A model generated the notes under the pieces. That model did no database searches and was not told where the DNA came from. It was given only the letters and a program-made list of their open reading frames with translations. Positions 3,352 to 62,967 of a stretch of DNA of 64,000 bases are shown one piece after another (within the stretch, counting starts at the first letter, position 1; every line of letters begins with the position of its first letter). Source of the DNA: Acinetobacter phage vB_AbaS-Bhz15; the sequence record PV067732.1; one strand, written 5' to 3'. The translations under genes were made by a program, and so were the position numbers.

Positions 3352-3381
3352 GTTTACTTTACACAGAAACGATAATATAAT
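3352..3381 (+). promoter_or_regulatory. T4-type early promoter
   Basis: GTTTAC-N18-TATAAT. Confidence 0.6.
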
Positions 3382-3410
3382 TGACATATCTTCAAAATGA
3401 GATGTATAAC

Positions 3411-4442
3411 ATGACTGAAAGACTAGTAATGAAATCATTGTTTGGATCAAAACTTTACGGAACATCTACTCCAGAAAGCGACCTAGACATTAAAGGCATC
3501 TATATTCCGGATGCAAAACAACTCATCCTGGGAAATGCGACTACACATTATAGCCGCAACACAGGCACTCATACTACTAAAAACACTGCAGATGATGTCG
3601 ATGAAGAGATGTATTCACTACAATACTTTATTGAATTGGCCATTAAAGGTGAAACTATTGCTTTAGACATGTTGCATACTCCTAAAGAGTTAATCACAGA
3701 ATTAGGTGATTCAGAAGTGTGGAACTTCATACGCCAAAACCGATATCGTTTCTACACTACAGATATGAAAGCATATCTTGGGTATGTAAAGAAACAAGCC
3801 GCAAAATATGGTATCAAAGGTACACGAATGGCAGCGCTTCGTCAGGTAAATGATGCTATAAAGGATTTGCCTGAGTATCATATTGTAGATATAACGGATG
3901 TCACTATTGAGCCGTCTAAACATATTTCTCGACGCCGTGATTACAAAGTTTCACAATTTGTGCATAAACTACCAATTAATGAATATTGCAAAATCGAAAC
4001 TGATCCTAAAACCGGTGCAACGTTCTATAATGTTATGGGTGTCAAACATCAATTGACAATCAAAATGTCTGAACTCAAACAGAAAATTGCAAAGGAATGG
4101 GAGAAGTATGGTGAACGTGCTCGTCAAGCAGAATTAAATAATGGCATTGATTGGAAAGCAATGCATCATGCCATTCGAGGTGGTTTACAATTACAAGAAA
4201 TCTATGATACTGGCGATTTAGAATATCCTTTAAAGGACGCTGAATTGCTTTTAAAAATCAAGAAAGGCGAGCTTTCATTTAAAGAAGTCTCTACAATTCT
4301 TGAAGACGTCATTGCAGATGTTGATGCATTATCAATTCAGGCTGCTAAAAATGGGATGCCGCAAAAAGTTGATCGTTCGTTCTGGGACAACTTTGTCTAT
4401 AACGTATATTCTGCACATATCTACTCACATTTGGAGAAGTAA
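3411..4442 (+). CDS. nucleotidyltransferase-fold protein (pfam10127/RlaP-like motif)
   Basis: LFGSKLYGTSTPESDLDIKGIY matches the GS...SD.D minimal NTase signature. The track start at 3381 is a TTG inside the promoter; ATGs at 3402 and 3411 are more plausible. Confidence 0.5.
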   Translation: MTERLVMKSLFGSKLYGTSTPESDLDIKGIYIPDAKQLILGNATTHYSRNTGTHTTKNTADDVDEEMYSLQYFIELAIKGETIALDMLHTPKELITELGDSEVWNFIRQNRYRFYTTDMKAYLGYVKKQAAKYGIKGTRMAALRQVNDAIKDLPEYHIVDITDVTIEPSKHISRRRDYKVSQFVHKLPINEYCKIETDPKTGATFYNVMGVKHQLTIKMSELKQKIAKEWEKYGERARQAELNNGIDWKAMHHAIRGGLQLQEIYDTGDLEYPLKDAELLLKIKKGELSFKEVSTILEDVIADVDALSIQAAKNGMPQKVDRSFWDNFVYNVYSAHIYSHLEK

Positions 4443-4443
4443 C

Positions 4444-4665
4444 ATGGAAAAATTATCTGAAACATCTTGGATCATTCGTCAAACACCTGAAGAAATTGCA
4501 GAAGGAAATGTCGATACTCTATTTTCACTCATTGGCGAAGAAAAACACTTAGAGATTGACGCAGATGATGAATATGAAGGTGTAGTACTAACTGTTCGAG
4601 AACAGATCATGTTACGTGATTTGTTATTAGAACTTCATCCATTGGAGGCTCCTCATGAAGTTTAA
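4444..4665 (+). CDS. hypothetical protein
   Basis: ATG at 4444 with GGAGAAG SD. The track start 4300 overlaps the previous gene. Confidence 0.35.
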   Translation: MEKLSETSWIIRQTPEEIAEGNVDTLFSLIGEEKHLEIDADDEYEGVVLTVREQIMLRDLLLELHPLEAPHEV

Positions 4666-4939
4666 AGAAGGCGAAAATATAATCATTATGCCCTTTATGA
4701 TCCCAGCAAAAGTCGTGTCATTTCGCCAAACTAATACTGTTGATAGTGTGTGGGCTAAGAACCTTGACGGGCATGAGTTTCCTATGAATGCTATTCGCGG
4801 TACGAATAAGTACGCACTAGAAACTTATTGGCCACATCGTGCAATGCAAGATGTATACATAGTTAAGGTGTCTCACTTAGTCTCATTTTTTGGATGGATA
4901 GCTTTAGCAATTCTTGCACTTGGTCTTTATGTAAAATAA
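4655..4939 (+). CDS. hypothetical protein with C-terminal TM helix
   Basis: ORF followed by a hairpin terminator. Confidence 0.35.
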   Translation: MKFKEGENIIIMPFMIPAKVVSFRQTNTVDSVWAKNLDGHEFPMNAIRGTNKYALETYWPHRAMQDVYIVKVSHLVSFFGWIALAILALGLYVK

Positions 4940-4946
4940 ATCTTAG

Positions 4947-4990
4947 ACAGGTGTAAATATTTTCAAATAAATGTTTACACCTGTTATCTT
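4947..4990 (+). terminator. hairpin terminator that contains the -35 of the next promoter
   Basis: ACAGGTGTAAA...TTTACACCTGT (11-bp arms) then TATCTTT. Confidence 0.55.
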
Positions 4991-60840: not shown

Positions 60841-60850
60841 GGAACCTGCT

Positions 60851-61216
60851 ATGGAAATCATGTTTTTAATATTTCTTCTGGTAGGCGTAGGTATTACATT
60901 GCTTCACTACGTCAATGAATCCCAGGTAAATAAAGCAAAATTTAACAATCTGTGGGCAGAGTATGATGCATTAATCCATGTAAATCAGGCGATATCTAAA
61001 GAACACCAACTTGTTACAAAAGAACTTAGACTCATCAAGGCGGAATACTCACGTCTGAAGAGCTCTAAACCTCAACCGTCCAATACAGAAATTACACACA
61101 ATTTTACAAAATCTGAATTACAGCGTATTCGTTTTTCTGTGCACCCAGATAAGCACCAAGGCAAAACTGCGCAGTTATTCATCAAAGTCAATGATATGTT
61201 GGAGAAAATGAAGTGA
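60851..61216 (+). CDS. membrane-anchored J-domain protein (DjlA-like architecture)
   Basis: N-terminal TM (IMFLIFLLVGVGITLL) and C-terminal SELQRIRFSVHPDKHQGKTAQLFIKVNDMLEKMK carrying the HPD signature and flanking helices of DnaJ J-domains. Confidence 0.5.
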   Translation: MEIMFLIFLLVGVGITLLHYVNESQVNKAKFNNLWAEYDALIHVNQAISKEHQLVTKELRLIKAEYSRLKSSKPQPSNTEITHNFTKSELQRIRFSVHPDKHQGKTAQLFIKVNDMLEKMK

Positions 61217-61512
61217 TTGCAGGATATACTATTTTTTACAAAGACAAAGATGGATTTGAATTGCCTTTAACTGAATTAGGTGTTTTCAAAATCTATCCTA
61301 ATGAACGAACTGCGAAAATTGCGATGCAAGAACTTGCAGACAGTATTACAAATATTCTACATCCCATTAAAACATTTAAGGCAAAACGAACGTCATTTTT
61401 AGGAATCAAAGTAGTGGAAGAAGTTGAAGCGCCAAAATTGCCTGAATACGCACGTGATGAATTGACTCGACAATTGAAAACTATGTTTGTAAAACAAGTG
61501 AAAGTAGCTTAA
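61213..61512 (+). CDS. hypothetical protein
   Basis: ORF. Confidence 0.4.
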   Translation: MIAGYTIFYKDKDGFELPLTELGVFKIYPNERTAKIAMQELADSITNILHPIKTFKAKRTSFLGIKVVEEVEAPKLPEYARDELTRQLKTMFVKQVKVA

Positions 61513-61563
61513 TGCTTTCAAGTTAATGTAATATAATTTTTAAAAGTTTTTAGGTCAAATATT

Positions 61564-62925
61564 ATGAATGATTTGAAATTGGAAGATTTAAATGAAGGCC
61601 AACGTGCTGCATTTGATGCGGTCATGAATGTCATTTCATCCAAATCTATGATGGCGACATCTTCACATGATGATGGTCCTTTACCGCACATCACAATCAA
61701 TGGCCCTGCTGGTACAGGTAAAACTACATTAACCAAGTTCCTTATTAGTCATTTAATTGCAAAAGGCGAAAAGGGTGTAATGCTTGCAGCTCCTACTCAC
61801 CAAGCAAAGAAAGTACTATCAAACCTTTCAGGTATGGATGCTTCAACTATTCATTCATTGTTAAAAATTAACCCTACTACATATGAAGATTCTACTGTAT
61901 TCCAACAGTCAGATACACCAGACCTATCGGAGTGTCGAGTGTTAATTTGCGATGAAGTCTCAATGTATGATCGCGAATTATTTCGGATCTTGATGGCATC
62001 TATTCCGCCATGGTGCACTGTCATTGGATTAGGCGATATTGCTCAGATTCGCCCAGTAGCTCCAAATAGCAATGTGCCTGAATTGTCAGCGTTCTTCTTC
62101 AATGACAAGTTTCAACAAGTTTCATTGACTGAAGTTATGCGTTCTAATGCGCCAATCATTGAAGTAGCAACCGAAATTCGACAAGGTGGTTGGATTCGTG
62201 AAAATATCCGAGACGGCAATGGTGTTCATTCAATGGTTAGACAAGGCGGCGGATCAGTAGCTGCGTTTTTAACAAAGTACTTTGAAATCGTCAAAGATCC
62301 TGATGACCTATTCGATAATCGAATGTTAGCGTTTACAAACAAATCAGTAAATGATTTGAATAACATCATTCGTAAAAAGTTATATCAAACCACTGAGCCA
62401 TATATCGTTAATGAAGTTCTTGTTATGCAAGAGCCACTAATTCGAAGTCACACATTCGAAGGCAAGACTTTTTCTGAAATCATTTTCAACAACGGTGAAT
62501 TAGTCAGAATTGTTAATTGTCGACGCAAAGATGTCAACTTGTTTATTAAAGGTTTTAAAGGTTCTGATTCTATCAATGTATGGGAACTTGAAATACGTGG
62601 TGTAGATTCTGTTGCAAGTGATGTTATACGTGTTATTCATGACGAACAAGAGATGAATAAATTCCAATACTTTATGTCGAAATCTGCAGGCGAATTTAAA
62701 AATGCACGTGATCGTCGTCCAAACTGGAAAGGGTGGTGGGATTTACGTAGTCAGTTCCATAAAGTCAAACCTTTGCCATGTGGCACTATTCACAAATCTC
62801 AAGGTTCTACTTTAGATAACGTATTTTTATTTACGCCGTGTATTCATCGTGCTGATCCTGCGTTAGCTCAGCAATTATTATATGTTGGAGCAACACGTGC
62901 TAAAAACAATGTGTATTTTGTTTAA
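61564..62925 (+). CDS. dda: Dda DNA helicase (SF1B)
   Basis: LNEGQRAAFDAVMNVI...HITINGPAGTGKTTLTKF...GVMLAAPTHQAKKVLS...CRVLICDEVSMYDRELF...IGLGDIAQIRPV...QQLLYVGATRAKNNVYFV aligns end-to-end with T4 Dda. Confidence 0.92.
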   Translation: MNDLKLEDLNEGQRAAFDAVMNVISSKSMMATSSHDDGPLPHITINGPAGTGKTTLTKFLISHLIAKGEKGVMLAAPTHQAKKVLSNLSGMDASTIHSLLKINPTTYEDSTVFQQSDTPDLSECRVLICDEVSMYDRELFRILMASIPPWCTVIGLGDIAQIRPVAPNSNVPELSAFFFNDKFQQVSLTEVMRSNAPIIEVATEIRQGGWIRENIRDGNGVHSMVRQGGGSVAAFLTKYFEIVKDPDDLFDNRMLAFTNKSVNDLNNIIRKKLYQTTEPYIVNEVLVMQEPLIRSHTFEGKTFSEIIFNNGELVRIVNCRRKDVNLFIKGFKGSDSINVWELEIRGVDSVASDVIRVIHDEQEMNKFQYFMSKSAGEFKNARDRRPNWKGWWDLRSQFHKVKPLPCGTIHKSQGSTLDNVFLFTPCIHRADPALAQQLLYVGATRAKNNVYFV

Positions 62926-62927
62926 TG

Positions 62928-62967
62928 GTTTACTTTAGGATAGGCTTATGTTATAATAGGCCTATCA
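62928..62967 (+). promoter_or_regulatory. early promoter with palindrome-embedded -10
   Basis: GTTTAC-N18-TATAAT; GATAGGCTTA / TAGGCCTATC. Confidence 0.5.

Follow-up and report, generated by a model that had tools for sequence, protein, structure and literature searches.

Composite early-promoter cassettes in a T4-like Acinetobacter phage: -10 boxes enclosed by stem-loops that probably act in read-through RNA

Introduction

Promoter-early stem-loops (PeSLs) were defined in the coliphages RB49 and phi1 (Arbiol et al., 2010; PMC2839356). The stem-loops occupy five positions, most frequently in the interval that separates the -35 box from the -10 box or overlapping the -10, and G-T pairs were marked in the stems. 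One RB49 stem-loop lowered read-through into lacZ about as much as rrnB T1. Mini-circles, which arise by recombination between neighbouring cassettes and are encapsidated, were also detected (PMC2839356). PeSLs were later extended to the phage pairs T4/PST and KVP40/nt-1 (Comeau et al., 2014; PMC4122927). Here we describe a set of early promoters, many with a -10 box enclosed by an inverted repeat, in a 64,000-nucleotide stretch (hereafter the window) of Acinetobacter phage vB_AbaS-Bhz15 [PV067732.1]. Our literature search found no description of PeSLs in Acinetobacter T4-like phages.

The promoters of the window resemble the PeSLs of RB49 and phi1 in several respects: (i) the order of elements is the same, namely a stop codon, an AT-rich stretch, a strong sigma-70-type early promoter, a stem-loop, a Shine-Dalgarno sequence and an ATG; (ii) stem-loops are found at several positions, including over the -10, and contain G-T pairs; (iii) the cassettes are present in many copies, concentrated among small accessory open reading frames (ORFs); and (iv) single-gene insertions or deletions (indels) between close relatives are bounded by two cassettes. 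They differ in that RB49 and phi1 have a near-perfect TTGACA -35 box and polyG/polyC-rich stems, while here the -35 is GTTTAC and the -10-enclosing stems are AT-rich, 8-16 bp long and without a U-tract. The use of a conserved start-site motif as the right arm is a feature of this phage, unlike RB49 and phi1. Terminator activity and mini-circles were demonstrated by experiment in RB49. The promoter consensus of T4/PST (TTTACW-N17-TAYWAT) is the same as in the window, and composite promoter-terminator cassettes of T4/PST and KVP40/nt-1 adjoin indels between close pairs, as here (PMC4122927). Lineage-specific stem sequences are a further shared trait (AGNA-loop-TCNT is the example from PST); the PST stems lie just upstream of the promoter, like the terminator class described below and unlike the -10-enclosing stems (PMC4122927).

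The window contains a repeated sigma-70-type early promoter oriented with the early genes, an overlapping or adjacent stem-loop in an intergenic site, conservation of the cassette over tens of nucleotides, sufficient for homologous exchange, and indels or replacements that are bounded by cassettes when close relatives are compared. We regard the element as belonging to the known PeSL class, in a lineage-specific form. The finding is real, highly non-random and largely known: the initial annotation of the window had presented it as possibly new, but stem-loops that overlap the -10 or lie between the two boxes are already the commonest layout in RB49 and phi1 (PMC2839356).

Results

Early promoters and their stems

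The pattern RTTTAC-N18-TATAAT has 27 exact matches in the window, all on the plus strand, while 0.09 are expected; none of 100 dinucleotide-preserving shuffles reached this number. The shorter pattern TTTAC-N18-TATAAT is present 30 times, which bears out the count of about 30 promoters with a T4-type -35 and an 18-bp spacer in the initial annotation. Other spacings are few among the exact matches (one N19 on the plus strand and one N17 on the minus strand), and the 18-nt spacer is the canonical 17 bp when the -35 is read as TTTACN (TTTACN-N17-TATAAT). With one or two mismatches allowed, about nine further sites were found in the same intergenic position (-35 starts at 312, 7283, 9234, 12620, 26460, 28551, 37709, 54168 and 60791), giving a total of 36 promoters. 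Their consensus, aaa...gTTTACtT......a....t.TG.TATAATaGtccTAtcAaat, combines an A-rich upstream stretch, a T4-type -35, a TGn extended -10 and a conserved start-site motif. By analogy with T4, these would be active promoters of the early time class.

The 36 promoters fall into three classes (Table 1): 15 have a stem of 8-16 bp around the -10, in 11 the stem is located over the -35 or the spacer or upstream of these, and 10 are stemless. When positions -24 to +22, counted from the -10, were folded for each promoter, the energies were bimodal, with the 15 promoters of the first class at -11.6 to -18.5 kcal/mol, two weak cases, and the others at about -1 to -6. RNA fold z-scores of eight hairpin promoters ranged from -3.6 to -6.7, none of 200 shuffles folding equally well, and were about 0 for two promoters without a hairpin. 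In the whole window, 59 stems scored at least 9, compared with about 23 in shuffled sequence; among the 59, a -10 is enclosed by 13, and 11 are found over a -35 or just upstream of one. As a background, a -10-type stem was present at 2 of 154 TATAAT sites in more distant T4-like loci. The initial annotation had proposed at least 14 promoters with the -10 inside an inverted repeat, and eight of its nine examples belong to the class of 15. The ninth, at 44357, is a U-tailed terminator (GGAACCAATTGGTTCC) that does not enclose a -10. It had also described the arms as differing between sites with complementarity maintained. The covariation is real (see below), but the right arm is not free: it contains the start-site motif aGTCYTATCAA, which is conserved even in promoters without a left arm. 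A scan of the 64-kb window against Rfam 15 at the gathering score gave no matches.

Stems of the second class are GC-rich and followed immediately by a U-tract, as in intrinsic terminators. Those at 26438, 39826 and 54157 are complete terminators embedded in promoters, with the -35 in the loop or stem and a tail CCTTTTGTGG running into the -10. The three terminators reported in the initial annotation to carry the next -35 in their loop or stem (approximately 4947-5002, 26438-26489 and 39826-39867) were all found again, and 54157-54197 is a fourth.

Two terminator-like structures should also be mentioned. At 44331-44385, the site of the ninth example above, GTTTAC-N14-TATAAT is followed by the terminator hairpin AATGGAACC/GGTTCCATT with TGTTTTATG, directly before ORF 44365-45423, whose counterpart in Konradin is a DNA primase (gp61); with a 14-nt spacing its promoter function is doubtful, and it may be a decayed cassette. 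The second, at 21367-21404 and outside the set of 36, is the hairpin ACAAAACAAAGAGGAAG/CTTCCTCTTTTTGTGGT, which is terminator-like, runs into TATACAAT and lies immediately upstream of ORF 21441-22949, whose counterpart in relatives is DNA polymerase part A. It resembles a further terminator/promoter composite, one whose -10 is weaker.

Five promoters are followed by a common 5'-leader module, TCAAATC-TAATAAY-RGATTTGA (50206-50228, 53764-53786, 54205-54227, 55448-55470 and 55998-56020), after which a GAGG-type Shine-Dalgarno sequence is present in four of the five cases and TGAGTAAA at 53764. With the usual distance from the -10 to the start assumed, the module would fold into a hairpin no more than a few nucleotides from the 5' end of the RNA made by the promoter itself. 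It overlaps the final bases of the right arm of the -10 hairpin, and promoters of Acj61 and Acj9 share its first bases (TCAAATCTA).

Genomic setting

The window is 97-99% identical to T4-like phages of A. baumannii, and matches were obtained to 60 Acinetobacter phage records. Its central 20 kb is 98.7% identical to Acinetobacter phage AB-Navy71, 96-97% to Maestro, Morttis and Minot, and about 79-81% to the Lazarusvirus group (Konradin, AM101, PhaR5), and the genes beneath these matches include DNA polymerase, helicase, dCMP hydroxymethylase and the clamp loader. All long ORFs of the window are on the plus strand. On the basis of the identity to relatives, the matched genes and the uniform ORF orientation, we assign the window to the region of early and replication genes in a T4-like myovirus of A. 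baumannii.

Covariation of the arms

Chimeras combining left and right halves of different promoters had a mean minimum free energy of -5.43 kcal/mol vs. -9.15 kcal/mol for the native promoters, a value that none of 20000 permutations matched. In an alignment of 15 ungapped promoters from four phages, anchored on the promoter boxes only, 95.6% of the cells pair (27-57% in slid controls); since the members were chosen for forming a stem in that register, only the covariation measures carry weight. Changes on both sides were found in 5 pairs and 11 cells, values reached by 1 of 500 and 0 of 500 shuffles, respectively.

The same was observed for orthologous promoters, which were paired via the downstream protein. 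The hairpin is kept through double changes in orthologues from Konradin, the IMG/VR contig 2974608788 and Acj61. In Konradin, GGACT/AGTCC of promoter 22976 is replaced by GGGTT/AATCC, and GGAC/GTCC of promoter 38491 by GAGC/GCTC; in the contig, AAGAC/GTCTT of promoter 45932 becomes AGGAC/GTCCT. The stem of promoter 29266 is kept in both Acj61 and Konradin with different arms, the right one displaced. Together with the variable spacing of the arms (see below), these observations agree with the earlier proposal that selection acts on complementarity and not on a fixed protein site.

More distant T4-like contigs (loci L005-L010, L137, L141, L143 and L147; 39-56% protein identity at the anchor genes) were examined in 20-kb stretches. 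None of these stretches contains a -10-enclosing hairpin, and TTTAC-N18-TATAAT is likewise missing from all except that of L137; these loci did not enter the covariation analysis. The layout is therefore confined to the T4-like phages of A. baumannii and to the lineage of Acj61 and Acj9. The matches to TTTAC-N18-TATAAT-N5-TATC listed from a viral sequence collection were mostly single ones on contigs without a relationship to the window, and were not used.

Mismatches and the position of the upstream gene

A G·T mismatch on one strand is an A·C mismatch on the other, so a cruciform or duplex site predicts no bias between the two, while folding of the sense strand predicts an excess of G·T. We scored all mismatch types equally in 33 unique -10 hairpins from six phages. 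The internal mismatches on the sense strand comprise 17 G·T and no A·C (binomial p = 1.5e-5); in the hairpins of the window alone the ratio is 8 to 1.

The geometry of the stems also varies. The symmetry axis (i+j) ranges from 44 to 55, a shift of up to about 5 nt, or from 46 to 49 within the GATA/TATC family, and the loops are 3-13 nt long. This is incompatible with the fixed half-site spacing of a dimeric protein.

The presence of the hairpin depends on where the upstream gene ends. Hairpin-class promoters sit between genes, with the ATG 31-53 nt past the -10; the gap that separates the -35 from the stop codon upstream has a median of 3 nt and lies within -1 to +12 in 14 of 15 cases. The median gap is 26 nt for the 11 promoters with GC-rich, U-tailed terminators, and 6 of the 10 stemless promoters overlap the upstream ORF (negative gap). 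In relatives, the stop-codon rule holds for 20 of 24 hairpin promoters and for 4 of the 39 without a hairpin (Fisher p = 6e-9). The two classes, hairpin and terminator (15 vs. 11 promoters), never coincide (hypergeometric p = 6e-4, or 6e-3 if only terminators wholly upstream of the -35 are counted). Since the stem follows the end of the upstream gene and takes the place of a terminator, it most plausibly acts on the upstream transcript.

Cassettes and recombination

Pairs of cassettes reach 91% identity over 85 nt, and the longest exact run is 37 nt; the median identity of all pairs is 45%. The contig 2974608788 lacks a 393-bp unit between promoters 39862 and 40255, and its junction promoter has the sequence of the left promoter through TATAAT and that of the right one thereafter. 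This crossover joins a terminator-type to a hairpin-type promoter; shared promoter sequence therefore suffices, without any need for the hairpin.

Three large indels were examined in AbTZA1, which is about 98% identical to the window: (i) a one-gene cassette at 55484-55939 is absent; (ii) about 670 nt stand in place of the promoter 38467 cassette; and (iii) an extra 209 nt is present just before terminator 48871 (near 48855), which is not clearly cassette-mediated. The region 46000-56000, with 11 of the 36 promoters, has patchy homology to Konradin and contig 2974608788, short blocks being split by unrelated small ORFs, and thus behaves as a hyperplastic region. Recombination hot spots had been among the roles considered in the initial annotation; indels do begin and end in cassettes, in the manner of the modular shuffling known from PeSLs, but this evidence concerns the whole repeated cassette and not the hairpin itself. 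The ends of homology blocks shared with Konradin also cluster near promoters; they were not counted as evidence, since such ends fall in fast-diverging intergenic DNA anyway.

Discussion

It seems likely that the promoters of the window are PeSL-type composite cassettes whose stem-loop, overlaid on the promoter to save space, acts in the sense RNA reading through from the upstream gene. Transcription from sigma-70 promoters starts downstream of the -10, and with the left arm lying after the -35 and before the -10 the stem cannot form in the promoter's own RNA, as was already argued in the initial annotation. Of the options offered there, a hairpin in read-through transcripts fits best with the 17:0 mismatch bias, the exclusivity with terminators and the link to the stop codon. 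Each cassette would extend from the upstream stop codon through an A-rich stretch, the promoter (gTTTACtT and TGnTATAAT, followed at the start site by aGTCYTATCAA) and a Shine-Dalgarno sequence to the ATG of the next gene. Where 11-52 nt separate the stop codon from the -35, an ordinary GC-rich U-tailed terminator would be placed upstream of or around the -35. Where the stop codon abuts the -35 there is no room for it, and the stem would be accommodated at those positions that promoter function constrains least, with the left arm in the spacer, the right arm in the discriminator and start region, and the -10 in the loop. The superimposed stem-loop would most likely attenuate or end read-through, or give the upstream message a protective 3' hairpin. 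Being repeated and similar, the cassettes may also serve as crossover points at which single genes are added, deleted or swapped between related phages.

Several observations weigh against this explanation. No U-tract follows any of the 15 -10-enclosing stems, whose tails are A-rich (ATCAAATC), and a terminator scan of the window called none of them. By the usual rules for intrinsic terminators, stems without a U-tract should terminate poorly, and this is to be expected of the -10-enclosing stems. The G·T events partly share ancestry, so that an estimated 10-12 are independent (a number still significant), and a transcription-linked mutation bias could add to the excess. Promoters 336, 41958, 50193 and 51347 abut a stop codon without a strong -10 hairpin, although 336 has a terminator over the -35 in its place. 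Hairpins are frequently gained and lost between orthologous promoters (2302 has none here and one in Konradin; 56317 has none here and one in Acj61), and hence are not essential at any single site. In our literature search, no transcript 3'-end or start-site data were found for these phages, and no transcript-end mapping in T4-like phages beyond general reviews.

Which action the RNA stem has (termination, pausing or a barrier to 3'-exonucleases) we infer from its sequence and position. Like intrinsic terminators, the -10-enclosing stems are sense-strand RNA hairpins directly after a gene; unlike them, they are AT-rich, lack a U-tract and are passed over by the terminator scan. Their mutual exclusion with bona fide terminators suggests an equivalent role. 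As complete terminators can be embedded in promoters of this phage, the -10-enclosing stems without a U-tract may attenuate weakly, pause the polymerase, or be protective or processing hairpins at the 3' end. We tentatively suggest, as a possibility that is far from assured, that they form a distinct class of RNA signals rather than squeezed-in terminators, pausing read-through polymerase or marking a processing or stability site. They would lie about as near to the stop codon as a terminating ribosome, given its footprint, allows without melting the stem, at an estimated distance of about 13 nt. If so, each accessory gene would be insulated from the transcript of its neighbour with its own strong promoter intact.

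A related explanation, which we consider somewhat unlikely, is that the read-through stem is not a terminator at all and separates the upstream and downstream cistrons as a processing or stability signal (an entry or blocking site for RNase III or RNase E) or as a site for a phage RNA-binding protein. Intercistronic stem-loops that stabilize mRNA, such as the REP hairpins of the E. coli mal operon and the Rhodobacter puf hairpins, do not overlap promoters; the -10 stems are similar in lying between cistrons without a U-tract, and could likewise block 3'-5' exonucleases and protect the upstream message. Their single-stranded A/U-rich tails fit this explanation, as do stems of 11-16 bp, which exceed the terminators of the phage in length and AT content, and RegB and RNase E are known to cleave early mRNAs of T4 within intergenic regions (PMC3014915). 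On the other hand, no Rfam family matches in the window, the variable loop and stem sequences make a sequence-specific protein unlikely, and the sole PeSL stem-loop tested experimentally acted as a terminator (PMC2839356).

Explanations that place the function in DNA, or assume none, appear less probable. A cruciform or single-stranded hairpin formed under supercoiling might tune promoter strength or timing, or be a cleavage or crossover site that creates recombination hot spots. Extrusion is possible for perfect repeats that are AT-rich, 10-16 bp long and separated by a loop of 3-8 nt, indel ends do fall in promoter cassettes, and relatives encode endonuclease VII. In a cruciform both strands are involved and G·T and A·C should be tolerated equally; given the bias of 17:0, the crossover in contig 2974608788 at a TATAAT shared by promoters of different type, and the stop-codon rule and terminator exclusivity that a role in DNA leaves unexplained, this option of the initial annotation is improbable. 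We judge equally improbable that the stems have no selected function and descend from one palindromic ancestral cassette spread by duplication and gene conversion, the covariation reflecting replacement of whole cassettes or template-switch correction of quasi-palindromes. Many hairpin promoters do belong to one sequence family, hairpin turnover is frequent, and some orthologue differences (e.g., at 37733) resemble replacement by the common ATAGGACTAT type. Yet at least five unrelated arm families enclose the -10, orthologues that are conserved in other respects show single-pair compensatory and wobble changes at 22976, 10329, 45932 and 56864, and drift is not expected to produce a strand bias in mismatches or a link to the stop codon and to the absence of a terminator. 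Least probable is a duplex-DNA operator, with a dimeric phage or host repressor bound to half-sites GATARGAC ... GTCYTATC over the -10 and silencing some of the early promoters. A classical operator has just this layout, an inverted repeat centred on the -10, and the most frequent arms, GATAGGAC and GTCCTATC, are shared between genera, from the window to Acj61. Conserved half-sites at a fixed spacing are not what was found, however: the spacing varies even within the GATA/TATC family, and unrelated arms (ATGAGG/CCTCAT, GTGCCATTA/TAATGGCAC, AAGAACTATGA/TCATAGTTCTT) occupy the same place. Both arms change in pairs, the mismatches are G·T on one strand only, and a dependence on the position of the upstream stop codon would be meaningless for an operator.

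Two other candidates were rejected by inspection. The arms recall a Fur box (GATAA...TTATC) but are about 18 nt apart, compared with about 3 nt in the Fur box. A terminator on the opposite strand was discarded, since, on either strand, the upstream flank is rich in T and the downstream flank rich in A.

As far as the two PeSL papers (PMC2839356, PMC4122927) were consulted, they contain neither the G·T bias of the sense strand nor the stop-codon rule nor the mutual exclusion of hairpins and terminators; together these three results shift the question of whether the stem-loop works as DNA or as RNA toward RNA. The AT-rich stems without a U-tract and the stop-codon rule are modest additions, and the advance is incremental. 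The results extend PeSL cassettes to A. baumannii T4-like phages under development for therapy, account for the gain and loss of single accessory genes in them, and provide a simple rule for annotating their early transcription units. Near-identical promoters that differ in having a hairpin, a terminator or neither offer a natural comparison.

Table 1. Promoters of the window by stem class, and one-gene cassettes (gap, distance between the upstream gene's stop codon and the -35; z, RNA fold z-score)
Position (strand)	Type	Promoter boxes	Stem arms	Remarks
9234..9276 (+)	-10 hairpin	TTTTAC-N18-TATAAT, -10 at 9258	ATATTATGAGAGTATT / AATAGTCTCATAATAT	hairpin retained in Konradin orthologue
10305..10345 (+)	-10 hairpin	-10 at 10329	TATATGAGGTTATT / AATAGCCTCATATA, one U·G pair	z -6.3; Konradin has AACC instead of AGCC
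22952..22992 (+)	-10 hairpin	-10 at 22976	TTGATAGGACTATT / AATAGTCCTATCAA	z -6.7; compensatory GGGTT/AATCC in Konradin
29242..29284 (+)	-10 hairpin	-10 at 29266	AAGAACTATGA / TCATAGTTCTT	
37709..37747 (+)	-10 hairpin	TTTTAC, -10 at 37733	GGTAGAACTGT / ATGGTTCTACC	orthologues have ATAGGACTAT/ATAGTCCTAT
38467..38504 (+)	-10 hairpin	-10 at 38491	ATAGGACTATT / AATAGTCCTAT	GAGC/GCTC in Konradin
40231..40265 (+)	-10 hairpin	-10 at 40255	GTGCTATTAT / ATAATAGCAC	right-hand partner of cassette indel
45908..45949 (+)	-10 hairpin	-10 at 45932	TTTGATAAGACTATT / AATGGTCTTATCAAA	GGAC/GTCC in contig 2974608788 orthologue
52637..52676 (+)	-10 hairpin	-10 at 52661	TGATAGAACTGTTAT / ATAATGGTTCTATCA, loop 3 nt	
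54600..54639 (+)	-10 hairpin	-10 at 54624	TGATAGAGCTGTTAT / ATAATAGTTCTATCA, two G·U pairs	
54995..55033 (+)	-10 hairpin	-10 at 55019	GATAAGACTAT / ATAGTCTTATC	
55411..55449 (+)	-10 hairpin	-10 at 55435	GATAAGACTAT / ATAGTCTTATC	left repeat of cassette indel
55961..56000 (+)	-10 hairpin	-10 at 55985	TGATAAGGCTAT / ATAGTCTTATCA, one G·U pair	right repeat of cassette indel
56840..56874 (+)	-10 hairpin	-10 at 56864	GTGCCATTAT / ATAATGGCAC	
62928..62966 (+)	-10 hairpin	-10 at 62952	GATAGGCTTAT / ATAGGCCTATC	
299..341 (+)	terminator-type hairpin	TATAAT promoter	AAAGGACAT/ATGTCCTTT + T-run	right arm (ATGTCC) occupies -35 position
3315..3381 (+)	canonical terminator hairpin	-10 at 3376	AAAAGGCGAAC/GTTCGCCTTTT	upstream of promoter
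4947..5002 (+)	long hairpin	-35 GTTTAC, -10 at 4997		-35 within right arm
12602..12648 (+)	terminator hairpin	weak -35, spacer 17, -10 at 12643	AAGGGACCC/GGGTCCCTT	adjoins -35
14135..14188 (+)	terminator-type hairpin	-10 at 14183	CAGGGAC/GTCCCTG	upstream of promoter
23317..23382 (+)	terminator hairpin	-10 at 23377	AAGGGAC/GTCCCTT + T-run	upstream of promoter
26438..26489 (+)	terminator hairpin, 18 bp	-35 TTTTAC, -10 at 26484		-35 in loop and right arm; tail CCTTTTGTGGTGT into -10
39826..39867 (+)	terminator hairpin	-35 GTTTAC, -10 at 39862		-35 in loop; U-tract occupies spacer; left-hand partner of cassette indel
48871..48928 (+)	canonical terminator	-10 at 48923	AAAAGGTGCTC/GAGCACCTTTT	followed directly by promoter
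54157..54197 (+)	terminator hairpin, 15 bp	-35 GTATAC, -10 at 54192		encloses -35; tail TTTTGTGG into -10
56248..56322 (+)	terminator hairpin	-10 at 56317	AAAGGAGCT/AGCTCCTTT	upstream of promoter
2278..2307 (+)	stemless			within 3' end of upstream ORF, gap -29; Konradin orthologue with hairpin
6400..6429 (+)	stemless			overlaps upstream ORF, gap -29
7283..7313 (+)	stemless	spacer 19		overlaps upstream ORF, gap -19
28551..28581 (+)	no -10 hairpin	weak -35		overlaps upstream ORF, gap -15
41934..41963 (+)	stemless			stop codon adjoins -35; exception to stop-codon rule
50169..50198 (+)	no left arm		right-arm motif AGTCTTATCAA present	exception to stop-codon rule
51323..51352 (+)	weak imperfect -10 stem only		TAGAG/CTCTA	
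51748..51777 (+)	stemless			
53727..53756 (+)	stemless			overlaps upstream ORF, gap -16
60791..60819 (+)	stemless	weak -35, spacer 17		inside upstream ORF
39879..40248 (+)	one-gene cassette			in window and Konradin, absent from IMG/VR contig 2974608788
55484..55939 (+)	one-gene cassette			missing in AbTZA1; flanked by two 91%-identical promoter cassettes

Other features of the window

Neighbouring ORFs 33514-34659 and 34719-35837 are paralogous (about 64-65% nucleotide identity) and represent a tandem duplication in the DNA-modification module; in Konradin, their counterparts carry the annotation putative DNA alpha-glucosyltransferase. At 24664-24691, a perfect 12-bp hairpin (GGGATATGATAA-aatg-TTATCATATCCC) covers the ATG of ORF 24669-25898, where relatives have a gene annotated as the second portion of a split DNA polymerase. 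This hairpin, which AbTZA1 keeps with one base change beside the loop, could be a translational operator or a mask of the start codon.

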